This document shows positions 20,123 through 44,644 of a stretch of 64,000 bases of DNA, one piece after another. Under the pieces are notes generated by a model. The model ran no database searches. It was not told the DNA's origin and worked only from the letters and a program-made list of their open reading frames with translations. Every line of letters starts with the position of its first letter. Within the stretch, counting starts at the first letter, position 1. The position numbers and the translations under genes are program-made. Origin of the DNA: Thermotoga profunda AZM34c06 (lineage in GTDB: Bacteria; Thermotogota; Thermotogae; Thermotogales; DSM-5069); contig NZ_AP014510.1 of assembly GCF_000828675.1 (NCBI RefSeq), positions 575,413 to 639,412 on the forward strand, in the 5' to 3' direction.

Positions 20123-20847
20123 TCAGGGAGATAACGGCTAAAACAGCCATTACTCGCACTAAGATCCCCGTTGCAAAATATGTGATCAACCCATACATCG
20201 GTTGCACTTTTGGATGTTTATATTGTTATGCCCGTTTCATAGGACCTTTCAAATACACTGGTTACAAATGGGGAAAAGATGTTTTGGTCAAAACCAACGT
20301 TGCACAACTGGTTGAAAAAGAATTGATCAAAACTAAAGGTGATTTCTTCCTGTCGAGTATTTGCGATCCATACCAACACATGGAAAAAAAGTATGAAATG
20401 ACACGAAAGATCATTCAGATTCTAACTTCACATTTCAGAAAAGCTCACATCATGACCAAATCAAATCTCATTTTGAGAGATATCGATCTTCTGAAAGACC
20501 TTTCTGTAACACTTACAATTACTACAGACCGCGAAGATGTTAGAAAGATTCTTGAGCCAGGTGCTCCTTCCGTTGAAGAGAGATTTGAAACACTCAGAAA
20601 ACTCAAGGAAGCTGGTATTGATGTCTCTGTCTTTGTAGGACCTGTTATTGTTATGGATGCAGAGCATCTTGCCTATATGCTTTCAAAGTATGTAGATAGA
20701 GTAATGCTCGATGCACTCAATTACCATAGGCAAGTGCAAATGGTGTATGAAAAATATGGTTGGACGGATTGGCTGACCAAAGACAAGTTTCTTGAAGTAG
20801 TTGAAAGATTTGAGAGAGTTTTTGGAAAAGGTTCTGTTAGATATTGA
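20119..20847 (+). CDS. radical SAM protein, SplB/COG1533-like (spore-photoproduct-lyase/DNA-photolyase family)
   Basis: CTFGCLYC = CxxxCxxC radical-SAM cluster motif close to the N-terminus. 242 aa. Start overlaps the wzz-like stop (ATGA). Confidence 0.65.
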   Translation: MIREITAKTAITRTKIPVAKYVINPYIGCTFGCLYCYARFIGPFKYTGYKWGKDVLVKTNVAQLVEKELIKTKGDFFLSSICDPYQHMEKKYEMTRKIIQILTSHFRKAHIMTKSNLILRDIDLLKDLSVTLTITTDREDVRKILEPGAPSVEERFETLRKLKEAGIDVSVFVGPVIVMDAEHLAYMLSKYVDRVMLDALNYHRQVQMVYEKYGWTDWLTKDKFLEVVERFERVFGKGSVRY

Positions 20848-21172
20848 ATATACTGTTTTCTATCAAATATTCTGCTGCACCTGTTAATATTGCATCGGGG
20901 TTGTTGAGAGATTTTCTTATGAAAACTTCAAATCCATAAAATCTTTCCCTGGCTAATCTTTCAACTTCCAGAAGGTATTTTTCATCAAAGATGGCATATC
21001 TTCCGCCAACGACAAAATGACAGATATCTGTTATTGAGAGAACATTCTGTACAATGCTGAAGAGTAAACTGACTAAGGTTTTGATTGAGATTTCTCCTTT
21101 TGTTGAATACTCACTCAAGATTTGAGGATAAACATCACCAACAGTTGTGAATGGTTCGCAGTTGTAAATCAT
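20837..21172 (-). pseudogene. ROK-family sugar kinase/regulator C-terminal fragment (likely gene remnant)
   Basis: Ends VVGGRYA...NPDAILTGAAEYLIE, matching the ROK C-terminal pattern (GGG...GAA). No ATPase N-terminal half and no CxCGxxGC zinc motif. The six-frame ORF extends upstream (to 21298) only by overlapping the purD 3' end. Confidence 0.4.
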
Positions 21173-21182
21173 CCTACCGATC

Positions 21183-22436
21183 TCACCTGTATAGGTTAAG
21201 AGCGATATCTTTTCGATAATACATGTTCTCAAAATAAATGTTTTTGATTGCATCATAAACGACTTTTCTTGCTTGTTCATAACTCTGTGATTTCGCACAG
21301 ATATTCAAAACTCTGCCACCGTTTGTTAGAATTTTTTCGTCGACCTTTTTTGTGCCTGCGTGAAAGATGACCACATCTTTTTCTATACTTTTCAAGCCAG
21401 AGATTTCAAATCCCGTCTTGTAAGAATCTGGATATCCACCGCTTACCAACACTACACAAACGGCTTTTTCGTCTGACCATTTTATTGAACGATTATTCAG
21501 ACTTCCTTCTACCGTGGCTTGTAAAATCTCTACAAGATTATTTTTCAACAGCATCAATATCACCTGTGTTTCTGGATCTCCAAATCTACAATTGAATTCC
21601 AATACTTTTGGTCCATCTTTTGTGATCATCAACCCTGCGTAGAGCACACCTTTGTACTCGATTCCTTCATCTTGTAGGGCTTTAACAGTTTTAGTGAGAA
21701 TCCGATGATAGACATATTCCGCCGTCTCTTTTGAGTAATATGGGCACGGTGCAATTGCCCCCATTCCACCGGTGTTAGGACCACGATCATTATCACAGGC
21801 TCTCTTGTAGTCCATACTGCTAACCATGGGAATCACGGTTTTTCCATCACAAAAAGCCAGAACAGAGACTTCCTTTCCTTGGAGAAATTCTTCGATTATC
21901 ACCTTATTTCCTGCTTCGCCAAAGATTTTTTTGTTCATAATATCATCTATTGCTTTGTATGCATCCTTTTTTGATTTTGCAACAATAGCACCCTTTCCCG
22001 CGGCAAGTCCGTCGGCCTTCACAACAATTGGTGTGTCGATTTTACAAAGATATTTTTGAGCATCTATTTGATTGTCAAAGACTTCAAACTTAGCCGTTGG
22101 TATATTGTACTTTGACATGAGAAGTTTTGCAAAGACTTTGCTACTTTCTATCATTGCAGCCTTTTTGTTCGGTCCAAAGACCTTTAAACCATGTTTTTCA
22201 AATTCATCAACGATACCATTCGCAAGGTAGATCTCTGGACCCACTACTGTAAGATCTATCTTTTCTCGAACAGCAAAGTTTAATATATCTTGGATATTTG
22301 TCAAAACAGAGCATTTTGCGTCTTCACAGATTCCACCATTTCCAGGAGTGCAGAAAAGCTCTATTTCTTTATCAAAAGACAGTTTCCAAACCAGCGCGTG
22401 TTCCCTTCCGCCTTGTCCAACCACCAAGATTTTCAC
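21183..22436 (-). CDS. purD: phosphoribosylamine--glycine ligase
   Basis: MKILVVGQGGREHAL N-terminus and an ATP-grasp body. 417 aa. Confidence 0.9.
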   Translation of the reverse strand: MKILVVGQGGREHALVWKLSFDKEIELFCTPGNGGICEDAKCSVLTNIQDILNFAVREKIDLTVVGPEIYLANGIVDEFEKHGLKVFGPNKKAAMIESSKVFAKLLMSKYNIPTAKFEVFDNQIDAQKYLCKIDTPIVVKADGLAAGKGAIVAKSKKDAYKAIDDIMNKKIFGEAGNKVIIEEFLQGKEVSVLAFCDGKTVIPMVSSMDYKRACDNDRGPNTGGMGAIAPCPYYSKETAEYVYHRILTKTVKALQDEGIEYKGVLYAGLMITKDGPKVLEFNCRFGDPETQVILMLLKNNLVEILQATVEGSLNNRSIKWSDEKAVCVVLVSGGYPDSYKTGFEISGLKSIEKDVVIFHAGTKKVDEKILTNGGRVLNICAKSQSYEQARKVVYDAIKNIYFENMYYRKDIALNLYR

Positions 22437-22445
22437 AAAACCACC

Positions 22446-23966
22446 TCAGTGTTTGAAATGTCTTGTGCCCGTGAAGATCATTGCAATATTGTATTGATTT
22501 GCAATTTCAATAACCTGTTGATCTCTTATCGATCCTCCTGGCTGAATCACCGCGGAAATACCACTTTTTGCTGCAACTTCGAGTGCATCTGGAAATGGGA
22601 AAAAGGCATCTGAAGCAAGAACCGATCCCTTTGCTTTTTCACCTGCCATTCTCACACAATGCTCAGTCGGCCACAATCTGTTTACTTGACCCGTACCTAT
22701 TCCAAGAGTACATAGATCTTTGGCAACTACGATTGCATTTGATTTTGCGTGCTTAACTACTTTCCAGGCGAAGATGAGATCTCTCATTTCACTACTTGTT
22801 GGAGCTCTCTTGGTCACTACTTTGAGTTCTTCATAATCGAGATTGTCTTTTGTTTGTAAAAGAATACCTCCGCTGATCTTTTTGAAATCAAATGGTTCAT
22901 CTTCTGCTGAAAAGTCGATTTTCAGAATTCTCAGATTTTTCTTTTTCGATAAAACCATCAATGCATCTTGTGTGTAGTCGGGTGCAAGTGTTACTTCAAG
23001 AAAGATCTCTGAGAGTTTAGCGGCCAATGTCTTGTCAACAGTTCTGTTGAATGCGACGATACCACCAAAGATAGAGATAGGATCAGCTTGATATGTTTTT
23101 TCAAATGCCACCGAGATATCTTCATCGCATGCAACTCCACAGGGATTGGTGTGTTTTATGGCCACGGCACATGGCATATCAAATTCTTTTACAAGTTCAA
23201 AGGCGGCATCTGCATCGCATAGATTGTTGAAGGAAAGTTCCTTTCCTTGTAATTGCTGAGCATTCACTATCGCTGAAGATTTTGAGAAAGGGTTCTTGTA
23301 AAGTACAGCCTTTTGGTGAGGATTTTCTCCATATCTAAGGTCGTAGAGTTTCTCAAATGTTGGTGTAAATGTTTTCGGAAATTCTTCCATATTTAATTTT
23401 TCTCTGAAAAACTGGGAAATCATTGCATCATAATGTGCGGTATGCTCAAAGGATTTTAAAGCAAGCTTCATTCTCTCGTTTTCTGTAATAGTTTCTCTCT
23501 TAGAAAGTTTATCGATGAGCCATTCGTAATCAGATGGATCACACACCACAAGAACATCTTTATAATTTTTTGCAGCCGAACGGAGCATCGATGGCCCACC
23601 TATGTCTATGTTTTCCAATATTTGTTCCAAGTCATTTGTCTTTTGGACAGTTTCTTTGAATGGATAGAGATTGACAACCACGATATCGATCGGTGTAATT
23701 GAGAATTTTTTGAGTTCTTCCAGGTGTTCTTTTTTGTCTCTCTTCGCGAGAATCGCCCCATGAATTGATGGATGCAATGTCTTCACTCTTCCATTCAATA
23801 TTTCTGGGAATGATGTTATTTGCTGTACTTCTAAGACTTCAAGGCCGTTTTCTTTCAAATATCTTGCGGTACCACCTGTACTAACAATCTCCACGTTCAA
23901 TTCAGACAATTTTTTTGCAAAACTGACAAGACCTTCTTTGTTCGAAACAGATATCAACGCTCGCAT
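22446..23966 (-). CDS. purH: bifunctional AICAR formyltransferase/IMP cyclohydrolase
   Basis: MGS-like N-terminus [11 protein letters not shown] and a formyltransferase C-terminus. 506 aa. Confidence 0.9.
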
Positions 23967-23970
23967 TTTT

Positions 23971-24597
23971 TCACTCCTCTATAAAAACCTTTCGCCCGAC
24001 AATTTTGAGTTTTCCTTCGGCAAACAATCTGATCGCCTCTGGTAATATTTGGTGTTCTATTTGATGAACTTTCAAAGCCACTGTTTCTGCAGTATCGTTA
24101 TCTTTGACTTCGATTGCCTTTTGAATTATTATTGGACCTGCATCGACATTTTCATCTACAAAATGAACCGTTGCACCAGTGATCTTAACTCCACTATCGA
24201 TAACTGCTTGGTGTACCTTCATACCGTAAAAATCTTTACCACAAAAGGCTGGTATCAGAGATGGATGTATATTGATGATTCTGTTCCTGAAAGCTCCAAT
24301 GAAATGTGGTGAGAGGATCTTCATGAAACCAGCCAAAACAACCAATTCGACATCATGAGATTTCAATATGTCGATCATCTTTTGCTCATAAGACACTTTA
24401 TCAGCAAAATCTCTTGGCTTTACGACAAAAGTTGGTATAGAATGCTTGCTTGCCCTTTGCAAAGCATAAGCATCTGGTTTATCACTTATCACTACGACTA
24501 CGCGGACGGGCAGTTCTTTTTTCTCGGATTTATCTATTATCGTTTGAAGGTTTGTTCCATTTCCAGATGCGAGGATTCCAACTTTTAAGATATTCAA
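23971..24597 (-). CDS. purN: phosphoribosylglycinamide formyltransferase
   Basis: 208 aa formyl-transferase fold ([15 protein letters not shown]). Confidence 0.85.
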
Positions 24598-25610
24598 ACC
24601 ATTACACCTCTTTCACCTTTAAAGATCTGACCAATAATCCATGCATTTTGCCCTTGAATTTGTAATTTTTTGATAATAGTATCTGCGCTATCTTTCTCGA
24701 CAACTAAAATAAAGCCTATTCCCATGTTGAAGGTCCTAAACATTTCTTTCTCTTCCATTTTTCCCATACTTTGAATTAGATGAAAGATCACAGGCACTTC
24801 CCATGATTTTTTATCCAATCTCGCTTCAAGGCCCTCTGGTATGACTCTTGGAAGGTTCTCCACGATCCCTCCACCGGTTATATGAGCCATTGCATGAACA
24901 TTTTCATCGAGTATCTCGAGAATTGGTTTGACATAAATCTTCGTCGGAATCAATAACTCTTCACCGAGGGTTTTTTTAAGATCATCTATGTATGTATTTA
25001 GTTTCATATCTTTCAGAAGTAATTTTCTAACCAGGGAGAATCCATTGCTGTGAAGACCACTTGAAGCAAGACCAATAACAACATCACCTTCTTTGACCTT
25101 TGAGCCATCCAATAATCTTTCTTTTTCGACTATACCAACCGCAAAGCCTGCGAGGTCATACTCATCTTCTTTGTACATATCTGGCATCTGTGCCGTTTCG
25201 CCACCTATTAGGGCACATCTGGCTTGAATGCAACCATCGCAAATACCTTTAACTATCTGAGCAACTTTTTCGGGAATGAGCTTTCCAACGGCGATATAAT
25301 CAAGAAAGAAAAGTGGTACCGCACCGTGGACTAATACGTCGTTCACACACATTGCAACACAATCAATTCCAACTGTATCGTGCTTATCCATCATAAAAGC
25401 TATCTTTAGTTTTGTGCCAACTCCATCGGTTCCTGCGACTAATACAGGATTTTTGTGTGAATTGTCTATTTGAAAAAAACCACCAAAACTTCCTATATCT
25501 CCAAGAACGCCTTTTGTATAGGTCGATTGAACATATTTTCTGATCATTTTTACGGCAGCGTCTGCAGCATCTATGTCGACTCCACTGTCTTTGTATGTGA
25601 TAGACATCAC
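24594..25610 (-). CDS. purM: phosphoribosylformylglycinamidine cyclo-ligase (AIR synthetase)
   Basis: 338 aa. YKDSGVDIDA N-terminus and the GGETAQMP motif. Confidence 0.9.
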   Translation of the reverse strand: MMSITYKDSGVDIDAADAAVKMIRKYVQSTYTKGVLGDIGSFGGFFQIDNSHKNPVLVAGTDGVGTKLKIAFMMDKHDTVGIDCVAMCVNDVLVHGAVPLFFLDYIAVGKLIPEKVAQIVKGICDGCIQARCALIGGETAQMPDMYKEDEYDLAGFAVGIVEKERLLDGSKVKEGDVVIGLASSGLHSNGFSLVRKLLLKDMKLNTYIDDLKKTLGEELLIPTKIYVKPILEILDENVHAMAHITGGGIVENLPRVIPEGLEARLDKKSWEVPVIFHLIQSMGKMEEKEMFRTFNMGIGFILVVEKDSADTIIKKLQIQGQNAWIIGQIFKGERGVMV

Positions 25611-25616
25611 ATCACC

Positions 25617-27008
25617 TCATCTTTTTTCAAAAAGATACTTTCTACCTTCTCTTGGTATTTCAATGGGGTATTCGCCTGTAAAGCAGGCTAAACATAGATT
25701 TTGTTTACTTAGGCCAGTTGCTTTGACTAAACCCTCAATACTCAGATAACCAAGACTATCTGCGCCGATAAACTCTTTGATCATCTCAAGATTGTTATCT
25801 GACGCGATCAATTCTTTTCTTGTTGAAGTGTCTATTCCAAAATAGCAACTGTGAGTTATTGGAGGAGAACTTATCCTCACATGTACTTCTCTTGCACCGC
25901 AATCTTTCAACATTCTAACGATCTGTCCCATGGTCGTTCCACGAACAATCGAATCATCTACCAAAACAATCCGTTTACCTTTGATTAAGTCTCTAAGTGG
26001 GCTGAGTTTCAATCTCACACCAAGACTTCTCATTCTTTGAGATGGTTGAATGAAGGTTCTTCCTATATAACGATTCTTGATCAATCCCATGCCCATTGGT
26101 ATATGAGATGCGTCTGAAAATCCTATAGCCGCAACATTTCCTGAATCAGGTACAGCAACAACAAGGTCTGCATCAACAGGATGCTCTCTTGCCAATATTG
26201 TGCCTGCTTCCCATCTTGTTTGATATACACTCACTTGGTCTATCGTGCTATCTGGTCTTGCAAAATAGACAAATTCAAAGACACATAGCGATTTCTTTGA
26301 GCTTTTTTTCTTGAAAGATTTAAGGCCATCCTCATCAAATACAACGATTTCTCCAGGTTCAACATCTCTAATGAATGTAGCACCTATGGTATCAAATGCG
26401 GCACTTTCCGATGCTATTACATAAGAACCGTTATAAGAACCAATGCACAACGGGCGAAAACCATGAGAATCTCTAACTGCAATGAGTTTGTCTTTGGACA
26501 TTATCAAAAGCGAATAAGCACCGTGCACTTTTTCAACACATTCAAATATTGCGTCGATCAATGATTTACGTGATTTTGCAATCAAAGCTGCAACTACTTC
26601 ACTGTCTGTGGTTGTATGAAACATTATGCCGTTTTGTTCAAGTTCATTTCTCAATTCGTACGCATTGACGATGTTTCCATTGTGAGCCACAGCCAATTCA
26701 CCTGAGTGATATTTCACAACCAGTGGTTGTGCATTGCTCAAAGAATTACTTCCCGTTGTTGAATATCTGACATGCCCAATAGCCATCTTTCCACCGAGTA
26801 GATCGAGGTCTTCTTCGTTAAAAACTTCAGACACCAAACCCAGACCTTTGTGGTATCTAATCGAATTCTGATCACTCACCGCTATGCCGGCGCTTTCTTG
26901 TCCTCTGTGCTGCAGAGCAAAAAGTCCATAATACACAGTCTTTGCTATTGATTCATCATATTGCGAAGAAAAAACACCCAGTAAACCACAGGCTTCTTTC
27001 AATGGCAT
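25617..27008 (-). CDS. purF: amidophosphoribosyltransferase
   Basis: N-terminal propeptide followed by catalytic Cys ([13 protein letters not shown]) and a PRTase domain. 463 aa. Confidence 0.9.
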   Translation of the reverse strand: MPLKEACGLLGVFSSQYDESIAKTVYYGLFALQHRGQESAGIAVSDQNSIRYHKGLGLVSEVFNEEDLDLLGGKMAIGHVRYSTTGSNSLSNAQPLVVKYHSGELAVAHNGNIVNAYELRNELEQNGIMFHTTTDSEVVAALIAKSRKSLIDAIFECVEKVHGAYSLLIMSKDKLIAVRDSHGFRPLCIGSYNGSYVIASESAAFDTIGATFIRDVEPGEIVVFDEDGLKSFKKKSSKKSLCVFEFVYFARPDSTIDQVSVYQTRWEAGTILAREHPVDADLVVAVPDSGNVAAIGFSDASHIPMGMGLIKNRYIGRTFIQPSQRMRSLGVRLKLSPLRDLIKGKRIVLVDDSIVRGTTMGQIVRMLKDCGAREVHVRISSPPITHSCYFGIDTSTRKELIASDNNLEMIKEFIGADSLGYLSIEGLVKATGLSKQNLCLACFTGEYPIEIPREGRKYLFEKR

Positions 27009-29185
27009 TATTGATTCACCAGCTTTTCGAGTGAATGATCGTATATACTTTGTATCTCATTTACAGTCGTGTCTATAACTCGATTGTCATTGATTTTGAT
27101 GATGAAATCTTGTTTTATTACTTCTCCAATTACAGTTGCTGGAAGGTCTTCTTGTTGAACAATTTCCCAGAAAGACGAGATTTTTTCCTTTGAAACACTG
27201 ATTAAAATTCTCGACTGATCCTCGCCGAAAAGTACAAAATCTGGTCTCTTATTGGTTTTCAGTTCACACGACACTCCAAGATTTCCCAGAATGCACGATT
27301 CTGCAAGGGAAATTGCTAAACCGCCTTCTGAAAGATCGTGCGCTGAATTTACGATCTTTTCTCGTATCAATCTTAAACAAGTCTTTTGGAGTCTTTTTTC
27401 CATCTCAAGATCGACACATGGTGGTTTACCTGATTCGACTTTGAAGATGAATCTCGTGTATTCACAGGCGAACTCTTCGCTACGGTTGTTTCCCAATAGT
27501 ATCACAACATCTCCTGGATTTTTAAAACCTGCCGTACACAAAGATGAAAGATCCTCTATCAAACCAACCATACCAATCACTGGAGTTGGATATATCTTTC
27601 TTTGAGGACTTTCATTGTAAAGGCTCACATTTCCACTCACAACTGGTATCTCCAGATATTTAGCGGCATCAGCTATACCCTGTATGGCTCTTTGAAGTTG
27701 ATAAGCTATCTTTGGATCGTCTGGATTTGCAAAATTCAAGCAATCCGTTATACCAACTGGTTCTGCGCCGGTTACGACTAAATTTCTTGCGGCTTCACAA
27801 ACCGCGATCTTTGTACCTTCGTATGGATCTAAATAGCAATAAAAACTATTACAGTCTGTTGTTACCGCGATTGCTTTGTTCAAATCTTTTATTCTCAAAA
27901 CTGCTGCATCTGAACCAGGTAATACAACCGTGTTTGTCCCAACTCTGTGATCATACCTTTCATAGACAAATCTCCTACTGCAGATATTCTCGCTTCTAAG
28001 GAGTTCAAAGAAGATCTCTTGCAGATTATCTAATTGTGGAAAATTTGTCTGGCAAGAATCTGTCCATGGAATTGCTTCGAGATCAACGATCGGTACCTTA
28101 TCGGTGAGAGCTTTCACTGGTATCTGAGCGACAACCTGGTCCTTCATTTTCACAGTGAAAAGACCATCATCTGTTATCTTTCCTATGATCTGTGCATGGA
28201 GGTCCCACTTTTCAAAGATCTCCTTGACTATTTTCTCAGATCCCGGTTTGATAATGAGAAGCATTCTCTCTTGGGATTCTGAAAGAACAATTTCGTAAGG
28301 AGTCATTCCCTCTTCTCTTTGTGGCACGAGTGAAAGTTCTATTTCTATACCTTTGTTTCCTTTTGAAGCAACTTCTGAGCATGCAGATGTCAAACCCGCA
28401 GCACCAAGATCTTGAATCGCCAATACACAATCGAGTTTGCTTGCCTCGAGGCATGCCTCAATGAGTAGTTTTTCTGTGAAAGGATCTCCTATTTGAACAG
28501 ATGGTCTTTTCTTTTCAGATTGTTCGGTGAGGTTTTCTGAGGCAAAACTCGCGCCGTGTATACCATCTCTTCCTGTAGAACTACCAACGAGCATCACGAG
28601 ACTACTCGACTCAGTCGCTTTTGAAAGTTTTATTTCTTTTTTTCTGGCTATACCAACGCACATCACATTAACCAAAGGATTGTCATCGTAACAATCATTG
28701 AAATATATCTCACCAGCAACTGTGGGAACTCCTATACAATTTCCATAATGTGCTATACCTGAAATCACACCCGAGAATAGGTATTTTGTCTTTGGATCCT
28801 TGAGATCGCCAAACCTGAGAGAATCGAGTAAAGCTATCGGTCGTGCGCCCATTGCAAAGATGTCTCTCACGATACCACCAATTCCGGTCGCAGCGCCTTG
28901 GAATGGTTCCACAGCCGATGGGTGGTTGTGACTCTCCATTTTAAAGACAACAACCAGATCATCACCTATATCAACTACACCTGCGTTTTCTCCAGGTCCT
29001 TGGATAACTCTTTTGCCCTTTGTTGGGAATTCCTTGAGAAGTTTTTTCGTGTGTTTGTAACTGCAATGTTCAGACCACATGACTGAAAACATTCCAAGCT
29101 CAATTTCATTTGGTTCTCTTTGTAATATTTCAACGATCTTTTTGTATTCTTTCTCGCTCAGTCCGAGTTCTTTATATGAGTGCAT
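27008..29185 (-). CDS. purL: phosphoribosylformylglycinamidine synthase subunit PurL (FGAM synthase II)
   Basis: 725 aa, duplicated AIRS-like domains. Coupled to purQ and purS. Confidence 0.9.
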
Positions 29186-29876
29186 GAGATTTCCTCCGTT
29201 CTATGTACAAAGCGATTGATTCAAAGATCTTTTTCCCGTCTATTGAACCAAGGATATCTTCGGTACATCTTTCTGGGTGGGGCATTAAACCGAACACGTT
29301 GTTATTTTGATTGATAATACCCGCTATGTTTGAAACAGATCCATTTGGGTTGGATCTTTCATCGATCTTTCCGCTCCTGTCACAATATCGCAGAACAACT
29401 TGAGATTCTACTTTCTTTGGATTTTGAATAAAATAATTTCCCTCACCATGTGCAATGCTCATCTTTACAATTTCTCCCATAGAATACATGAGCGTGAAAG
29501 GTGTGGAATTATTCTCAACACGCAAATACACATCATGACAGTGAAATCTCAGATCTTTGTTTTTCATCAGCACACCGGGAAGAAGGCCTGCCTCGGTCAG
29601 TATCTGAAAACCATTACAGATACCGAGTACCAAAGTGCCATTTTGCGCCGAATCAACGACACTTTTCATAACTGGTGAAAATCTTGCTATTGCACCAGCT
29701 CTCAGGTAATCTCCATAAGAAAACCCACCTGGTAAGACTATCAAGTCGAACTCATTTGGTGCAAAATTCTCCTTGTGAAAAACATATTGGCAGTCAAAGC
29801 CAAGGACGTACTTCAAGACATAGTAAGCATCTGAGTCGCAATTTGACCCAGGAAAGACTATGACTGCCGATCTCAT
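29172..29876 (-). CDS. purQ: phosphoribosylformylglycinamidine synthase subunit PurQ (glutaminase)
   Basis: Class I glutamine amidotransferase with the catalytic GICNGFQ Cys. 234 aa. Confidence 0.9.
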
Positions 29877-30127
29877 CTTATCTCCTCCACAGACAAAATT
29901 AGATATTTTTCTATAACTGGATTGGCAAGTAGCTTTTCACACATTTGTTCAATCTCAGATTTCAACTTTGTCTGATTTTTCACATCGATATCGATTTCGA
30001 TTATTTTACCCATCCTCACATCTTTAACATTTTCAAATCCAAGATGATGCAATGCCTGTTTAACGGCATTACCTTGGGGATCGAGTACACCATCTTTAAA
30101 CATGATTTCGATCTTTGCTCTATACAC
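29873..30127 (-). CDS. purS: phosphoribosylformylglycinamidine synthase subunit PurS
   Basis: 84 aa small subunit located between purQ and purC. Confidence 0.85.
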
Positions 30128-30137
30128 AAAATCACTC

Positions 30138-30845
30138 CTAACTGCTTACCCTTTTGTATATTTCCCAATAAGCTTCCTCGATTTTGCCAAGGTCTCTTCT
30201 GAATCTATCTTTGTCAAGTTTCTCCTTTGTTGAGCTATCCCAGAACCTACAGGTATCCGGTGAAATTTCGTCGGCAAGCAATATTTGTCCATCCATTCTT
30301 CCAAATTCGAGCTTGAAATCAACCAGGACTATGTTCCTGCTTTCTAAAAAGTTCTTCAGGATTTCATTAACCTTTAGCGCTGTTTGCTCGATCCTTCCAA
30401 TCTCTTCCTCTGACGCCAAATTCAATGCGAGTACATGATAGTGATTTATCATCGGGTCTCCTAATTCATCGCTCTTGTAGCAAAGTTCGAGAACGGTTTT
30501 TTTGAGAGTAGTTCCTTCGGCTAAACCCAATCTTTTTGAAAGGCTTCCGGCAACGATATTTCTCACAATGACCTCTATGGGTATTATCTTCACTGCTTTG
30601 ACGAGCATTTCTCTATCGTTCAGTAGTTTGATGAAATGGGTTTGAATGCCATTCTTCTCGAGTAATTCGAAAAAGATCGCTGAGATTTTGTTGTTCAAGA
30701 TACCTTTGTTTGGGATCGTTCCTTTTTTCTTACCATCAAAAGCCGTTGCATCGTCTTTGTATTCGATTATCAAAAGATTTGGGTCACTTGTTTGATATAC
30801 CCTTTTTGCTTTTCCTTCGTAAATCATCTGCTTTTTTTCCATCAT
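30138..30845 (-). CDS. purC: phosphoribosylaminoimidazole-succinocarboxamide synthase
   Basis: 235 aa SAICAR synthetase ([16 protein letters not shown]). Confidence 0.9.
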
Positions 30846-30846
30846 C

Positions 30847-31323
30847 TCACCCTTCCCTTAGTTTTTTGTTTTTATCCAATACGGCTTTTCTGAGATCATC
30901 TTTGTACTTTGCGAGTTTTTCCCTGAGATTTTGATTGTTCAAAGACAAAATCTCTATTGCAAATAATGCGGCATTCTTGGCTCCATCTATGGTCATCGTT
31001 GCAACAGGTACACCAGTTGGCATCTGGCAGATTGACAAAAGTGAGTCAAGTCCGTTTAAAGAAGCAGAAATTGGTACACCGATCACTGGTAATGTGGTCA
31101 CAGATGCTATGATTCCTGGTAGATGTGCAGCCTTACCAGCCATGGCAATGATCACCGAATATTCTTTTTCTGCGTTTTTTGCAAGATCGATCGTTTCATA
31201 TGGTGTCCGATGGGCAGAGAGGATGAAAATCTCGTGTGGAATGTCAAAAGATTTGAGCACCTCAGACGCTTCTTGAGCGTACTTTAAATCGCTATCGCTT
31301 CCCACGACAATGGCAATTTTCAT
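30847..31323 (-). CDS. purE: 5-(carboxyamino)imidazole ribonucleotide mutase
   Basis: [14 protein letters not shown]-terminus. True start is ATG 31323, 7 nt downstream of GGAGGTG. The ORF-track TTG 31338 lies inside the RBS/terminator tail. Confidence 0.9.
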
Positions 31324-31336
31324 GCAAAGCACCTCC

Positions 31337-31460
31337 AAAAAATAAAAAATCGGTAGTGAAAGTCTCTACCGAAAAGAAATTAGCCCTTGTAGCCAGGACA
31401 GTTTACGGCTGTCCGGTAGAGACTTCCGAGCCCTATTCTCGGAATTATACAAGGGCATTT
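31337..31460 (-). ncRNA. purine (guanine-class) riboswitch with terminator/antiterminator expression platform, leader of the pur operon
   Basis: Minus-strand RNA GCCCUUGUAUAAUUCCGAGAAUAGGGCUCGGAAGUCUCUACCGGACAGCCGUAAACUGUCCUGGCUACAAGGGC matches the B. subtilis xpt G-box almost element by element. P1 is GCCCUUGUA/UACAAGGGC. J1/2 is UAUAAU. P2 and L2 are UCCGAG-AAUAGGGC-CUCGGA. J2/3 is AGUCUCUACC. P3 and L3 are GGACAG-CCGUAAA-CUGUCC. A C immediately precedes the 3' strand of P1 (the guanine-specifying position). Downstream hairpin UCGGUAG-AGACUUUCA-CUACCGA plus UUUUUUAUUUUUU forms an intrinsic terminator. Its 5' arm CGGUAGAGACU is complementary to aptamer J2/3 AGUCUCUACCG (antiterminator). Confidence 0.9.
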
Positions 31461-31582
31461 CCCCGTGGGAGGGAAATATTCACTTGTACAGTTTAATAAT
31501 ATCATGAAGCTTAATCAGAGATATATTTTCAAAATGAATAAAAATACTTTACAAAATTTTGTGCCCAAAGATCTCAACTGTC

Positions 31583-31605
31583 AAAAAACCCCCGTAAGGG
31601 GGATT
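31583..31605 (-). terminator. intrinsic terminator after the encapsulin gene (bidirectional-looking)
   Basis: CCCCC-GUAA/UUAC-GGGGG hairpin flanked by A6 on one side and a T-rich run on the other. It sits directly after the encapsulin stop at 31607. Confidence 0.7.
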
Positions 31606-31606
31606 A

Positions 31607-32395
31607 TTATTTTGTACTCAATATGCACACAGAGGAGGGTGTATTCAAAAATAATGTGAGACTTTCAGAAATTGAAAATTCAAGTTTCTCTCCAACAGGT
31701 CCTATGAAACCTATTGACATGTCTTGACCGATTATTATCGAAGCGAATACATCTGATTCATGTATGAGAACACCGCAGTCTTTCAAAATGGGAGCTTTAT
31801 AGACATTTTTTACAAAAGCTTTCATGTGCTCGAGTTCAGTTTGATTTCCACTTTCGTATCTCCTGAAGAGCAAGTTATATCTTTCAGGTGATAGAGCCAA
31901 TAGATAAGGACCATGGAAACCCGCTTCATCAAGGCGGGTGACTGCTTCGATCACATTATTAACTGCTTGCCCGACGTTTTTCCAGGACTTCAATTCAACG
32001 CTGAGTACACCGTCTGAATTGAGTAAACCCTTAGAAGATATTCCTTCAAAGATCAATTTATCTTCGATTTTTGCGCATTCTTTTGTAGCTTCGATTAGTG
32101 AAGAAAGATCGATCGTAATTCCTTCTTTTTCATAAGCTGCAAGGTCTCTTTTTGAGATCAGAAAGGTCTTGTGTATATAAGTCAACGGGAGTGTCTTAGA
32201 TGAAAAAACTCCCGGTTCGATCTCGATATCTGCCAAAGATATCTGTTTCAAACCAATGCCAAAAGGTCCTTTTGTTGGAAGAATCTTTCTTCCTGTGAGA
32301 TAACTTTTTGCGATCTCGACCATTGTGTTATTGAAGAGTTGCCAAAGCTCCGGTGATAGTGGTGCATCTTCTTGCATTAAATATTTATTCGCCAT
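31607..32395 (-). CDS. family 1 encapsulin nanocompartment shell protein (HK97-fold, linocin M18-like)
   Basis: 262 aa. Strong similarity to the remembered T. maritima encapsulin: [21 protein letters not shown] vs [33 protein letters not shown] vs [22 protein letters not shown] vs ILGQDLSIGY. The true ATG ([19 protein letters not shown]) lies 1 nt after the cargo gene's TGA. Confidence 0.85.
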   Translation of the reverse strand: [262 protein letters not shown]

Positions 32396-32396
32396 G

Positions 32397-32738
32397 TCAC
32401 TCACCATCCTTGAGAGAACCAACTGTCGGTTCTTCATCGCCTATCTCTTTGATGATATCTTCAACTTCCTTAGCTCCTTGCGCCATGAATTGCGCTTCGT
32501 CTTTCGTGAGTATTTCCAAAAGCTTTGTGAATTCTCCGATGTGAACTCTTTCTTCATTTGCGATCTCGGTGAGTACCTTTTTTGCCAATGGATGATCTGT
32601 TGCATCGGCATGAGATAAATATTGATGAACGGCCTCGTGTTCCGCGGCAATGTTAAGTCTAATAGCCCTGATTAATTCTGTAAGAGTCAACTTTCTCTCG
32701 GGGACTTTGCCACTGAATGGATTAACAAATTCTGGCAT
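32397..32738 (-). CDS. encapsulated ferritin-like protein (EncFtn/Flp) cargo
   Basis: 113 aa. Ferritin-like ExxH motifs (AAEHEAVHQY, NEERVHIGEF). C-terminal GSLK-containing tail fits a family-1 cargo-loading peptide. AGGAGGTG RBS 6 nt before ATG 32738. Translationally coupled to the shell gene. Confidence 0.8.
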   Translation of the reverse strand: MPEFVNPFSGKVPERKLTLTELIRAIRLNIAAEHEAVHQYLSHADATDHPLAKKVLTEIANEERVHIGEFTKLLEILTKDEAQFMAQGAKEVEDIIKEIGDEEPTVGSLKDGE

Positions 32739-32757
32739 ATTTCCACCTCCTAACATT

Positions 32758-40314: not shown

Positions 40315-41682
40315 CACAGTTTTGTCCTCAGATTGATCGATCTTGCTTTGCCTTTCTTGAACAAAAGCGATCATGTTCTCGTAAAACAATTTCATTTCCT
40401 GTTCAGATAGATTTTTTCGCGCGTATCTCAATCTTACATACACATCTGTTGCAACAGAAAGATTTTCTTGATTTTCAGCAATTTTGAGTATTTCAATTGG
40501 TGTTAAGTGATGATATTGGGCGAAGTATTTTCTTCTCAACCACCAATAAGCACCAAGGATGAATTTCTCGCTCGGTTCATATTCAGGAATAACCTCAATG
40601 GGATAGAGTTCGATATCTTTCGGTATATTTCCTTCTGCATTTTGTTCATGGTATGTTTTTAATCGCAAGCCTTTGAGTAATGAATAAATCAGAGTGATAA
40701 TCATCAATAAAAGAGCCAACATACTTATAATATCGAGTATCAGTGTTACGTTCATCTTTGATTGCTTTGTTTGTGAGTTCTCGATTACAATCGTAGCTGT
40801 ACTCGACGGTTGATAAAATTGCTGACTTTGTCCTGTTTTTTCCTCGTATTGAAAAGTTTCTTGAATGGTATTCTCAGATGGCTTGATGAATCTGAAAAAG
40901 AGCGACAAAGAGCATATGGCAATTGTAAAGGTCAGTATTCCAAGCATGAGTAATTTTAGTGTTCCTCTTACGCCAAAATTGCTAATAGAAAAGGTAAACA
41001 GTAATGATCCAAAGAGAATGAGTACCGCTGGAAACCATATCTTGTCTATGAAATCCGTCAAAAAACTCTTTTTTGAGTTCTGGGATCTTTCAGATGGCTG
41101 CATTAGAATGACCTGTTCCTCTTGTTGCTCCTTTTGGGTTTGTTGTTCTTGATGTGCGGGGATCAACGACAAGATTGGTTTGAGTGGAACAAAATCGATT
41201 CGCGAAAAGACTGTGGCAACTATTAGGATTGATAGTATGTATACTAAGGCGATTTTGAGGTTTAAAAGTTTTGACTTGTTCAAATACCATGTTCCCAGCA
41301 GGAACCCAAAAAATAAAAGATCGGCAACCGTTCCATGTGGCTTTGCCAAGCTTAGGTACACACCAAGAAAGATCAAAGAAAATACAGAAGACAGTCCACT
41401 TGAAACGAATATCATAATGAGCGCCGTTGCTACAAGAGTGAACATCACGGAGGTGAAAAATTCTATTTTGATAATGCCAGCCAATACGAAGTTAATGATT
41501 AAGATAGCAGGAAAGATGAAGATCATTGAACAACCCAGATCCGAGACCAAAAGAATAAATGAAAACACCATCAGACCAGCGAGTACCAGAGTTGCCCAGA
41601 TCGGTAATGAACTGAACAGATAAAAGCCCATCAATACGAGTAAGGCAACAGTTAGCAGTTTTTCAAAAGCCTTGAATTTCAT
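40264..41682 (-). CDS. polytopic membrane protein with a C-terminal DUF4129-like domain (MoxR-system partner)
   Basis: 472 aa with about 8 predicted TM helices and a soluble C-terminus (WWLRRKYF...TPIEIL). Last gene of the MoxR-DUF58 operon. Its 3' end overlaps the convergent mbfA-like gene by about 51 nt. Confidence 0.5.
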   Translation of the reverse strand: MKFKAFEKLLTVALLVLMGFYLFSSLPIWATLVLAGLMVFSFILLVSDLGCSMIFIFPAILIINFVLAGIIKIEFFTSVMFTLVATALIMIFVSSGLSSVFSLIFLGVYLSLAKPHGTVADLLFFGFLLGTWYLNKSKLLNLKIALVYILSILIVATVFSRIDFVPLKPILSLIPAHQEQQTQKEQQEEQVILMQPSERSQNSKKSFLTDFIDKIWFPAVLILFGSLLFTFSISNFGVRGTLKLLMLGILTFTIAICSLSLFFRFIKPSENTIQETFQYEEKTGQSQQFYQPSSTATIVIENSQTKQSKMNVTLILDIISMLALLLMIITLIYSLLKGLRLKTYHEQNAEGNIPKDIELYPIEVIPEYEPSEKFILGAYWWLRRKYFAQYHHLTPIEILKIAENQENLSVATDVYVRLRYARKNLSEQEMKLFYENMIAFVQERQSKIDQSEDKTVSNIDVKELSDKKTYEK

Positions 41683-42943
41683 CGAATACCTCCTGCAATG
41701 TTTGACTTGGTTTAACTATCCTGATAATTATCTGCTCTTTTTCGAGTAATCTTGCCCTTTCATTTAATCTTTGCATGTCCAATGGATACATTTCATATGT
41801 TCTTGTCGGTTTATATCTCGGGTCTCTAAATCCATACGGGATTAAAAGTACAATCACTCGAGAAACCTTTGCCCTTGCATTAATCAATAATGGGAGCAAT
41901 GAGTCAGTTAGGTACATGGATATTATCACCAAAGTATTTGATGGATTCAGAACATATAGATCTTTGGCTAATTCATCGGCGAGTTGTGGTCCATTTTCAT
42001 CGCCCTCTGCCATCGCGAGAAGTTCTACTGCGTTTACCCAATCGGAAGTAGAGCCGTAGTTTCTTCTCAAGACCTCTCTTGCTACAACAACGATGTCTAT
42101 GAAATTCCCTTGTTGTGTCAACCAATAAATAATTGATGATGTTGCAAGTACTGCTTCTTCTTCGTAATTTTTCCTTATCTGTGCCCAGACATTCTTTGCG
42201 AAAATATCTTTTGATAGATTCAGATCCAGATAAATTATGGTATTACTGACGGCAGTGAAATCGAGTTCTTTGACATACAGTTCACCCAATTTGGCTGATA
42301 TCTTCCAATGGATCTTATTCAAAGGTTCGTTGGAGTATTCTCTAACACCTTTTATCTGTGTTGTATCTTCGAGTAATTTGAAGTCTGATCTGATCCCTGG
42401 GAGGAGTTCTCTGAGTCGTGATGGAAAGGATTCCAGGTACATTATTTTCGGTAAGACGAGTATCTGTTGTTCAGCAGAGTAATGAGCCCAGTGCTTGAAA
42501 AATCCGAGCGGATGTTCGTAAACAACGACAAGATCGGTGAGAACCTTTTTGCCTCTGGTTGAGAAAGTTGTCTTGGCTTGCAAGATAATTGGTTGTGATT
42601 TTTGTAAATGTACAGGTTGATCTAAAAGGTTATAGGTCAAAAGACCGGCGACTTTTATCTGTGACAGGATATTTATGTTCATATTTCCCGAGGAACAACA
42701 GAGCCTATGGTGAATTATCACATCTTCATTTGTGAAAGATCGTGTTCTGTTAGCCCACCTTTCAATATCAAGGTTGCCTATCTTTTGTTTTGTCGAGAAA
42801 TAATTGAACCATAAGAAACCACAGCAAATACACAAAATTACCGAAAAACCATTGAAATTTGCCAAAAGCCAAAGCGCAGACAAAGTTGTGAACAAAGAGA
42901 GTATGCCACTCGAAGAAGAGATTTTTTGTAGTTTAAGTTTCAC
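41663..42943 (-). CDS. DUF58 domain protein (vWA-like, MoxR partner)
   Basis: 426 aa with two N-terminal TM helices and the DUF58 core around IKGVREYSNEPLNKIHWK. Overlaps moxR by 11 nt. Confidence 0.7.
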   Translation of the reverse strand: MKLKLQKISSSSGILSLFTTLSALWLLANFNGFSVILCICCGFLWFNYFSTKQKIGNLDIERWANRTRSFTNEDVIIHHRLCCSSGNMNINILSQIKVAGLLTYNLLDQPVHLQKSQPIILQAKTTFSTRGKKVLTDLVVVYEHPLGFFKHWAHYSAEQQILVLPKIMYLESFPSRLRELLPGIRSDFKLLEDTTQIKGVREYSNEPLNKIHWKISAKLGELYVKELDFTAVSNTIIYLDLNLSKDIFAKNVWAQIRKNYEEEAVLATSSIIYWLTQQGNFIDIVVVAREVLRRNYGSTSDWVNAVELLAMAEGDENGPQLADELAKDLYVLNPSNTLVIISMYLTDSLLPLLINARAKVSRVIVLLIPYGFRDPRYKPTRTYEMYPLDMQRLNERARLLEKEQIIIRIVKPSQTLQEVFDEIQGF

Positions 42944-43880
42944 TCTTTATCGGTGCCTCCTCTGTTTGAAGAATATAGTTGAGTATTTCTTGCTTGGTTT
43001 TTCTCATGAGTCTTGCTTCAGGTTTTAAGATTATCCTGTGTGCCAGTACATCTATCACTATCTCTTTGACGTCATCTGGCAAGACATAATCTCTACCCCT
43101 CAAACCAGCCAGAGATCTTGAGATTTCCATAAGAGCGATAGCACCCCTTGGACTTGCACCAAGGGCTATGTCCTCGTGTTCTCTGGTTCTTGAAACAATT
43201 CTTATTATGTAATCCAATATGGAGTCGTCAATGTAAATCTGTTTGACATTTTGTTTGGCTTCATCGAGTTCTTGTATATCACAAACAGGTTTCAGTGAAT
43301 CTATAGGATGAATTTTCTCGAGTTTGCGAAGCATTCTCATCTCGTCATCTCTACCAAGATAGCCGAGTGACACGCAGATGGAAAATCTATCGAGTTGTGC
43401 TTCAGGTAAAGGAAAGGTTCCTTCGAATTCCACAGGATTTTGCGTTGCTATTACAAAAAAGTGCTTACTCAATGAATAGGTGGTTCCGTCAACTGTAACT
43501 TGTCTCTCTGCCATAGCTTGAAGCAATGCCGACTGTGTTCGTGGAGTTGCCCTATTTATCTCATCTGCAAGAAGGATATCGGTGAAAATAGGACCTTTTT
43601 TGAAAACAAATTCGTTGTGTCTGACGTCCAAGATATTCAATCCCGTTATATCAGATGGTAACAAGTCTGGTGTGCATTGGACTCTGTTGAAATTCAAACC
43701 TACGGAAACAGATAGAGCCCTTGCGAGCATAGTCTTACCAACACCAGGAACATCGTTCAAAAGTACATGTCCGTCACTGAGCATAGAGGCTAATATTTTT
43801 TCCACGACGGTCTCTTTTCCAACGATCACCTTTGAGACGTTCTCGATTATCTTTCTCGCGAAATTCTCCAGAATTGCCAT
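42933..43880 (-). CDS. MoxR-family AAA+ ATPase
   Basis: Walker A LLNDVPGVGKT and Walker B ILLADEINRA. 315 aa. Confidence 0.85.
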   Translation of the reverse strand: MAILENFARKIIENVSKVIVGKETVVEKILASMLSDGHVLLNDVPGVGKTMLARALSVSVGLNFNRVQCTPDLLPSDITGLNILDVRHNEFVFKKGPIFTDILLADEINRATPRTQSALLQAMAERQVTVDGTTYSLSKHFFVIATQNPVEFEGTFPLPEAQLDRFSICVSLGYLGRDDEMRMLRKLEKIHPIDSLKPVCDIQELDEAKQNVKQIYIDDSILDYIIRIVSRTREHEDIALGASPRGAIALMEISRSLAGLRGRDYVLPDDVKEIVIDVLAHRIILKPEARLMRKTKQEILNYILQTEEAPIKSET

Positions 43881-44503
43881 TTGTGATTCCTCCTGTTATC
43901 CAAATTCGTTGGCTGTGATATCAATTTACCAACTGATCTGTACGCAGTTGCCTCTTTGCCAATAGATTCCTTGTTTCGATAATCGTGTTTTTTGATGAAT
44001 ATTGACAGTTGATCTTTCAGATAGTTCAATTTCTCAGTCTGAATTTCCTTAAAACGATCTTTTGTAGTATCATTCAATAATCTGTATATCTTGCCGAAAT
44101 GATATAGACAAAAAACTGAATCGCTTTGTGAAAAGAGTATCATACCATCAGTTTCACTGAGGATTTTACCAAAGGAACTTGTGTAAACTTCCTCGAGTTG
44201 AGACTCATGATTGCACAAATAGCAGCTACACGAGTATATATCTGATTCATTTTGTTTTATGGTTTTCAATTTGTGGTCGAGTATGTCTTCGTATATAATC
44301 GCTATACCTAACAGTCCAAGTTCAGGATGATGATGGAGGTATCTCTCGATAATTTCTACGTGTTTTCTACACAATCCCATGGTTCTCAAGTTCGATCTGA
44401 CTTGAGGGTCATTGACGAGCTCATACAAGATAGTGTCTATGAGTTTTTCCATGCTTTCATTGATCAATTTGCAAATAGGACAAGATTGATCTTTCTCAGA
44501 CAT
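43847..44503 (-). CDS. Cys-rich hypothetical protein, first gene of the MoxR operon
   Basis: 218 aa from ATG 44503 (MSEKDQSCPICK...). Motifs CPIC, CRKH and CSCYLCNH suggest metal binding. The 31 extra N-terminal residues in the ORF track are a terminator hairpin read as protein. Confidence 0.5.
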   Translation of the reverse strand: MSEKDQSCPICKLINESMEKLIDTILYELVNDPQVRSNLRTMGLCRKHVEIIERYLHHHPELGLLGIAIIYEDILDHKLKTIKQNESDIYSCSCYLCNHESQLEEVYTSSFGKILSETDGMILFSQSDSVFCLYHFGKIYRLLNDTTKDRFKEIQTEKLNYLKDQLSIFIKKHDYRNKESIGKEATAYRSVGKLISQPTNLDNRRNHKWQFWRISRER

Positions 44504-44557: not shown

Positions 44558-44593
44558 GAAAAGAAAAAAACTCCTACTCTTTCGAGTAGGAGT
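44558..44593 (-). terminator. intrinsic terminator downstream of the GH38 mannosidase gene
   Basis: Minus-strand ACUCCUACUC-gaaa-GAGUAGGAGU hairpin followed by UUUUUUUCUUUUC, about 50 nt after the stop at 44645. Confidence 0.75.
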
Positions 44594-44644
44594 CATCAGC
44601 CTCTATGGGCAAGTATGGCAGACCCCATTGCCAAAATCATTATA

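Follow-up and report, generated by a model that had tools for sequence, protein, structure and literature searches.

The purine riboswitch leader of the pur operon in Thermotoga profunda: a predicted termination switch with a variant junction

The pur operon and its neighbours

The stretch of DNA analysed here, a window of 64 kb with a G+C content of 38-40%, carries on its minus strand a compact series of genes for the de novo synthesis of purines. The first gene is purE, of the N5-CAIR mutase type (30847..31323, with the ATG at 31323; TIGR01162, 197 bits against a cut-off of 150). It is followed by purC (30138..30845; TIGR00081, 268 bits), purS (29873..30127; NF004630, 111 bits), purQ (29172..29876; NF002957, 309 bits), purL (27008..29185; NF002290, 1026 bits), purF (25617..27008; TIGR01134, 552 bits), purM (24594..25610; TIGR00878, 469 bits), purN (23971..24597; TIGR00639, 230 bits), purH (22446..23966; NF002049, 740 bits) and purD (21183..22436; TIGR00877, 544 bits), the last confirmed gene of the operon. 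These calls are based on NCBIfam equivalog models, and all ten genes score above the curated cut-offs.

Gaps and overlaps among the ten genes do not exceed 14 nt. Internal promoters or terminators that would split the operon were considered and rejected, as such sites are no commoner than in shuffled sequences. Because of the tight spacing and the lack of an excess of promoter- and terminator-like sites, the genes can reasonably be regarded as a single transcription unit, and all ten are probably co-transcribed. The preliminary description had placed the entire de novo pathway under control of the riboswitch discussed below. This is upheld for the ten genes purE-C-S-Q-L-F-M-N-H-D, but purB and purK are missing from the operon. 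A tblastn search with PurB from a related locus (L012) found no purB in the operon or anywhere in the 64 kb, and no purK is present in the operon despite the N5-CAIR mutase type of PurE.

An open reading frame of 111 amino acids without a Pfam match (20840-21172, minus strand) starts 11 nt after the purD stop codon; it may be an eleventh co-transcribed cistron or a gene remnant. On the other side, directly upstream of the pur leader, lie genes for a family-1 encapsulin shell and an EncB/ferritin-like cargo protein (31607-32437 and 32397-32756, minus strand), which end in a strong GC-rich terminator (31589-31602).

Identity of the leader element

When the whole window was scanned with Rfam cmscan, a match to RF00167 (Purine) was found at 31370-31472 on the minus strand, with 76.8 bits and an E-value of 6.2e-12. 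The gathering score of this family is 37 bits, so that the assignment to the purine riboswitches made in the preliminary description is borne out by the covariance model with about 40 bits to spare. The alignment covers the full model (1-102), is untruncated and contains zero non-standard pairs, and RF00167 is the top member of clan CL00123 at the leader site. In a permissive scan of 31250-31650, no Rfam family besides RF00167 appears at E <= 1, and a second leader RNA family, such as PRPP/ykkC or ZTP, was thereby ruled out for this region.

Judged by its sequence, the leader element is an ordinary purine riboswitch of the guanine-I class (RF00167). The riboswitch family, its association with these genes and the orthologous site in the lineage have all been catalogued already, and any Rfam-based annotation pipeline would call it. 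The pur riboswitch is thus a correct routine annotation that leaves existing knowledge unchanged; its use lies in defining where the leader lies, where the attenuated transcript is likely to have its 3' end and which genes make up the purine regulon of a thermophile.

In the RegPrecise survey (Sun et al. 2013, PMC3766115, supplementary file 1), a purine riboswitch is listed on purE together with purCSQLFMNHD in Thermotoga lettingae TMO, on purE and purCSQLF in Petrotoga mobilis, and on purEKBCSQLFMNHD in B. subtilis. The entry for T. lettingae (now Pseudothermotoga) is the closest counterpart, agreeing with the present element in riboswitch family, genus-level lineage and all ten regulated genes. 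It gives the site and the regulon only; the expression platform, the variant aptamer core and the 5' module that are dealt with below are not described there (PMC3766115).

Distribution of related leaders

In a set of species-representative genomes, the closest PurE proteins are those of Pseudothermotoga, with 77-79% identity. RF00167 is found at the same place in four of four Pseudothermotoga loci, at 76-78 bits. The leader is near-invariant in these four genomes from the extended -10 element to the Shine-Dalgarno sequence; beyond the promoter, the upstream sequences have diverged completely.

Further leaders were obtained by scanning a metagenome collection with the pattern TCTACC-N6-CCGTAAA-N6-TGGCTA, which captures the unusual 3' junction of the aptamer. 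The scan returned 23 loci, many of them within the same leader family, and four sequence groups could be distinguished: the Pseudothermotoga-like group A, group B (L008, L028, L025 and L009), group C (L011) and group D (L015 and L017). All conservation counts given here are based on an alignment, A2, of 15 distinct leaders from Pseudothermotoga genomes and metagenomes. The aptamer, the terminator and the complementarity between J2/3 and the terminator are kept in all 15.

Across the groups, the element precedes purE-purC-purS-purQ-purL-purF, and two group B loci have it in front of purC and the genes that follow. At the group B loci L025/L026 and L009/L020, the same riboswitch leader is found with a degenerate or missing purE, and purC is the first intact gene. 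The sequences of these loci suggest that purE has been lost behind a retained riboswitch in some lineages.

The aptamer

From P1 to P1, the aptamer (RF00167) occupies 31383..31456 on the minus strand, and its helices P1, P2 and P3 correspond to the inverted repeats I5, I6 and I9. According to the covariance-model alignment and the sequence itself, P1 is formed by GCCCUUGUA (31456-31448) with UACAAGGGC (31391-31383). It is followed by J1/2, UAA (31447-31445), which lies within the string UAUAAU (31449-31444). P2 pairs 31444-31438 with 31430-31424 and is closed by L2, AAUAGGG. J2/3 is GUCUCUAC (31423-31416), of 8 nt as in the guanine-I class. P3 pairs 31415-31409 with 31401-31394 around L3, CCGUAAA (31408-31402), and J3/1 consists of G31393 and C31392. 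Both loops are seven nucleotides long, and a loop-loop contact between GG in L2 and CC in L3 appears possible from their sequences.

The equivalents of the nucleotides that contact the ligand are U31447 (U22), U31422 (U47), U31418 (U51) and C31392 (C74) in the same alignment, and these four are invariant in 15 of 15 related leaders. At position 74 of RF00167 aptamers, a C specifies guanine or hypoxanthine and a U specifies adenine. With C31392 in this position, the aptamer is of the guanine/hypoxanthine type, and the U74 of adenine riboswitches is not present; guanine or hypoxanthine is thus the presumable ligand of the pur leader.

The preliminary description had credited the leader with every element of the G-box aptamer. 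P1, J1/2, P2 with L2, J2/3, P3 with L3 and C74 are indeed at the places given for them; the core, however, is not the textbook one. Position 73 is a G (G31393) and not an A, and one nucleotide, U31395, is inserted between the last two pairs of P3, at the border of P3 and J3/1. The aptamer therefore departs from the consensus junction lengths and from the A73 of the guanine-I class. Both G73 and the insertion are natural variations within the class (PMC2018637), and so they do not exclude class membership.

The significance of these deviations can be estimated from published variants. The A at position 73 is only about 90% conserved (Mulhbacher and Lafontaine, PMC2018637). Its replacement by G in the B. 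subtilis xpt aptamer abolishes the binding of 2-aminopurine, and the natural aptamer LM-pbuG tolerates G73 (PMC2018637). An additional nucleotide just upstream of position 73 is present in BH-ssnA and FN-purQ, which are the weakest natural binders; the KD for guanine is about 414 nM for BH-ssnA versus 4.7 nM for xpt (PMC2018637). In view of these variants, the affinity and the purine preference of the present aptamer may differ from the textbook case.

It could be imagined, therefore, that the fold is the same and the response to the ligand is shifted, so that G73 and the extra nucleotide make this a sensor of low affinity or narrower specificity, with an otherwise unchanged mechanism; it might, for example, sense guanine only, in the sub-micromolar to micromolar range, and hypoxanthine and xanthine poorly. 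Both deviations, G31393 and the U31395 insertion, are present in the covariance-model alignment, and natural aptamers that carry an additional nucleotide upstream of position 73 have an affinity for guanine about 100-fold lower, and neither xanthine nor hypoxanthine at 1 uM evoked a clear response from them (PMC2018637). One of these aptamers, FN-purQ, has purine-synthesis genes downstream, as the present aptamer has. Moreover, unrelated metagenome lineages also carry the UGGCUA form of the junction, where it lies upstream of pur genes as well as of xanthine dehydrogenase-like genes, the latter recognized by eye and not with an HMM. Against this, G73 is tolerated in LM-pbuG, and the alignment puts U31395 one position further upstream than directly before 73, as a bulged nucleotide between the last two pairs of P3. 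The likeness to BH-ssnA and FN-purQ consists in one extra nucleotide near position 73, at the border of P3 and J3/1; it follows from the published description, so that their equivalence is assumed and weak binding of the present aptamer would be an analogy. A shifted response is possible on this evidence, though we are inclined to doubt it. In either case, a naturally thermostable aptamer with G73 and an insertion could serve as a test case for the way in which junction variants tune affinity.

There is also a likeness to the classes guanine-II and xanthine-II, which share the three-stem junction, a C that pairs with the ligand and a G at the equivalent of A73 (PMC9295807, PMC12445698). These classes have an insertion of 1-2 nt in J2/3 and of 3-4 nt in J3/1; they precede genes for phosphoribosyltransferases or purine oxidation, and guanine-II is an ON switch (PMC9295807, PMC12445698). 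Identity with either class was ruled out, because J2/3 has the canonical 8 nt here and there is a single extra nucleotide on the 3' side. The present element differs from them further in its pur genes and its OFF-type terminator.

Promoter, terminator and antiterminator

The predicted promoter is an extended -10 element, TGATATTAT (31496..31504, minus strand), of the form TGnTAnnAT that is conserved in the relatives. In every related leader, TGnTAnnAT sits 9-11 nt upstream of the AAGTGAATA motif, and the flanks diverge. No -35 hexamer is found 16-18 nt upstream of the extended -10, which is why a simple promoter scan does not list it. The -35/-10 site that the scan does report, TTGACA-17-CAAAAT at 31584-31556, is unconserved in the relatives, and the extended -10 at 31504-31496 is therefore preferred. 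Its position places the likely transcription start near G31489.

Downstream of the aptamer lies an intrinsic terminator (31337..31372, minus strand; inverted repeat I4). Its stem is formed by UCGGUAG (31372-31366) and CUACCGA (31356-31350) and is followed by UUUUUUAUUUUUU, a U tract of the form U6-A-U6 (31349-31337). If one A.A mismatch is included, the arm pair extends to 10 nt with 90% complementarity. A simple terminator scan allows loops of 3-8 nt, and the pur hairpin is missed for that reason only. Its computed energy is -8.7 kcal/mol at 37 C and, with extrapolated parameters, -3.6 kcal/mol at 65 C, which would make it a weak terminator, given a probable growth temperature near 65 C.

The U tract ends at 31337, and the Shine-Dalgarno sequence of purE, GGAGG (31332..31336, minus strand), starts at 31336 and is kept in the relatives; terminator and Shine-Dalgarno sequence adjoin each other, as had been described earlier. 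This arrangement might also allow translational control by masking of the ribosome-binding site, instead of or beside control of transcription, all the more as CCUCC in the 5' hairpin of the leader can pair with GGAGG in the folds computed for 65-80 C. However, hairpin and U6-A-U6 together make up a standard intrinsic terminator, which is conserved with compensatory changes; in addition, the Shine-Dalgarno sequence is unpaired in both main conformers and the candidate anti-Shine-Dalgarno sequence is absent from group D. Translational control is very improbable, and termination of transcription is the reading followed here.

The alternative to the terminator is a helix that involves the aptamer itself. 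Its 5' strand, AGUCUCUACCG (31414..31424, minus strand), runs from the last nucleotide of P2 through J2/3 into the first two nucleotides of P3; its 3' strand, CGGUAGAGACU (31361..31371, minus strand), is composed of the terminator 5' arm and part of the terminator loop. As the preliminary description had claimed for the J2/3-P3 segment and the 5' arm, the two strands (31424-31414 and 31371-31361) are exactly complementary over 11 nt. The longest inverted repeat in the leader, I1, has this pairing at its core. The leader thus contains the parts of an expression platform: an intrinsic terminator and a competing helix whose nucleotides belong partly to the aptamer and partly to the terminator. 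The use of J2/3 itself as the antiterminator strand makes for a compact and conserved platform design.

The folding of the nascent leader was followed in a length series from the deduced transcription start. As long as the transcript reaches no further than the end of P1, the aptamer is the fold of lowest energy. Once the terminator 5' arm is added, the minimum changes to the antiterminator between J2/3 and the 5' arm, with P2 and P3 retained. With the full U tract, at 65 C, aptamer plus terminator are again the minimum; at 37-55 C, the minimum-energy fold of the leader includes the antiterminator helix. The two full-length states have energies of -47.3 versus -44.4 kcal/mol at 37 C and of -20.5 versus -18.0 kcal/mol at 65 C, a gap of about 3 kcal/mol. 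In the absence of ligand, the pair probability of the terminator rises from 0.05 at 37 C to 0.54 at 60 C and 0.65 at 70 C, and that of the antiterminator falls from 0.95 to 0.43 and 0.30 at these temperatures. Because the energy parameters at high temperature are extrapolated, these values support a "poised" switch and nothing beyond that. As the full-length states are nearly equal, a modest contribution of the ligand could decide the outcome.

Comparison of the 15 leaders in A2 points in the same direction. Their consensus fold, computed with RNAalifold, is aptamer plus terminator. The ligand-bound architecture (5' hairpin, P1, P2, P3 and terminator) is 96.8% paired, against 32-57% in slid controls. 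P1 and P3 are invariant and hence uninformative for covariation. P2 has two compensatory pairs, each of them UA in 11 leaders and CG in 4. The terminator stem also has two, one with UA in 9, CG in 3 and AU in 2 leaders, and the other with CG in 13 and UA in 2. The antiterminator is 95.9% paired, and its pair A31424:U31361 is replaced by G:C in four group B leaders, where the change from A to G at 31424 is also matched by a change from U to C at the P2 partner. Covariation of one nucleotide with two alternative partners is the pattern expected of a switch between two helices; for the antiterminator it represents a single compensatory event in one lineage.

The proposed mechanism can be summarized as follows. 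Transcription would probably start near 31489, from the extended -10 promoter, and the aptamer (31456-31383) would fold once it has been transcribed. Guanine or hypoxanthine, when bound, would be held by C31392 together with U31447, U31422 and U31418. Ligand binding is predicted to lock J2/3 and P1, so that the terminator hairpin (31372-31350) can form and RNA polymerase would stop in the U tract (31349-31337), just before the ribosome-binding site of purE. Without ligand, 31424-31414 (J2/3 and the base of P3) would pair with 31371-31361 and block the terminator, and purE-C-S-Q-L-F-M-N-H-D would be transcribed. The OFF-switch logic put forward earlier thus fits the sequence, the computed folding series, and the consensus fold and covariation of the 15 leaders. 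In these models, the pur leader is very probably a switch of the guanine-I class in which guanine or hypoxanthine triggers termination of transcription and thereby turns the operon off.

The classic analogue is the purE leader of B. subtilis, where a G-box aptamer with C74 likewise stands before the de novo purine operon. Mandal et al., in 2003, are said to have described this riboswitch as an OFF switch that acts by intrinsic termination. In B. subtilis, the pur genes are in addition repressed by PurR. The B. subtilis aptamer, BS-purE, binds 2-aminopurine as xpt does (PMC2018637). The present system differs from it in several respects: the operon is without purK and purB, the antiterminator uses J2/3 and leaves P2 and P3 standing, and the leader has G73, an inserted nucleotide and, before P1, a conserved 5' motif and hairpin.

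The conserved 5' module

The leader begins with a 5'-terminal motif, AAGUGAAUA (31477..31485, minus strand), which is invariant in 15 of 15 leaders of A2. Directly before P1 it is followed by a hairpin (31457..31477, minus strand; inverted repeat I7) of the form AUUUCCC(U)/(G)GGGAAAU with the loop CCCAC, which is kept in all four sequence groups with differing stems and loops. This 5' module is seen in the window and in L001-L004, L008, L009, L011, L015, L017, L021, L024, L025, L028 and L029. The putative subclass of leaders that carry it can be placed taxonomically only in the thermophilic Pseudothermotoga, as groups B-D are metagenomic. The module is the only part of the system with some potential for novelty.

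Several simple roles were considered and rejected. AAGUGAAUA is not a repeated operator, as it has 2 copies in the 64 kb and 1.3 would be expected. Among four candidates tested across the leaders, no consistent pairing partner for it was found. A "P0" helix of AAGUGAAUA with the U-rich linker after P1 was discarded, as the duplex energies are no better than with shuffled linkers in 15 of 15 leaders. An anti-P1 helix, GUACAAG:CUUGUAU, is not a conserved feature either: none of its pairs shows a compensatory change, and the helix is disrupted in 6 of the 15 leaders. The pairing AGUGAA:UUCACU, between AAGUGAAUA and the loop and 3' arm of the terminator (inverted repeat I8), is kept only in group A, that is Pseudothermotoga, and an anti-Shine-Dalgarno role for the CCUCC of the 5' hairpin was dismissed on account of group D, in which the hairpin is without CCUCC.

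An upstream alternative helix is not without precedent, as in the add riboswitch of Vibrio vulnificus such a helix tunes the switch for temperature. By the same reasoning, the 5' module (31485-31457) might add a third conformational state or a second input that adjusts the pur switch to temperature, by pairing with the P1 5' strand (GUACAAG:CUUGUAU), the terminator 3' arm (AGUGAA:UUCACU) or the Shine-Dalgarno sequence (CCUCC:GGAGG). The invariance of AAGUGAAUA and the retention of the hairpin in four groups would be in line with such a function. The computed behaviour of the partners is suggestive as well: the anti-P1 helix is in the minimum-energy fold at 37-55 C and has melted by 65-70 C, its pair probability falling from 0.95 at 37 C to 0.05 at 70 C; in eight of eight leaders of the Pseudothermotoga group, wobble changes preserve AGUGAA:UUCRCU; and CCUCC:GGAGG is part of the minimum-energy fold at 65-80 C. 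Nevertheless, not one of the three pairings holds throughout the groups, that with the terminator arm is absent in group B, and pairing with the linker does not exceed that with shuffled linkers. The combination of an invariant sequence with variable partners argues against a role that is purely one of base-pairing, and we regard a third state or second input of this kind as unlikely.

More generally, AAGUGAAUA and the hairpin might constitute an undescribed accessory domain of a guanine-riboswitch subclass, a proposal drawn from sequence conservation that we would likewise call improbable. Such a domain might provide a third state that compensates for temperature, serve as a second anti-terminator or offer a contact site for a protein or RNA polymerase. 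AAGUGAAUA itself may be contacted by a protein or by RNA polymerase, at about +3 to +12, or may have an effect on RNA stability. If the accessory domain were real, the pur operon would integrate a second signal besides the purine level.

A second riboswitch in the window

A fluoride riboswitch (RF01734) is present elsewhere in the window, at 44580-44641 on the minus strand, with 43.7 bits against a threshold of 34. The gene that follows it is not crcB but encodes a DUF6062 protein (43847-44503, minus strand); next come genes for a MoxR-type AAA_3 ATPase (42933-43880, minus strand) and a DUF58 protein (41663-42943, minus strand).
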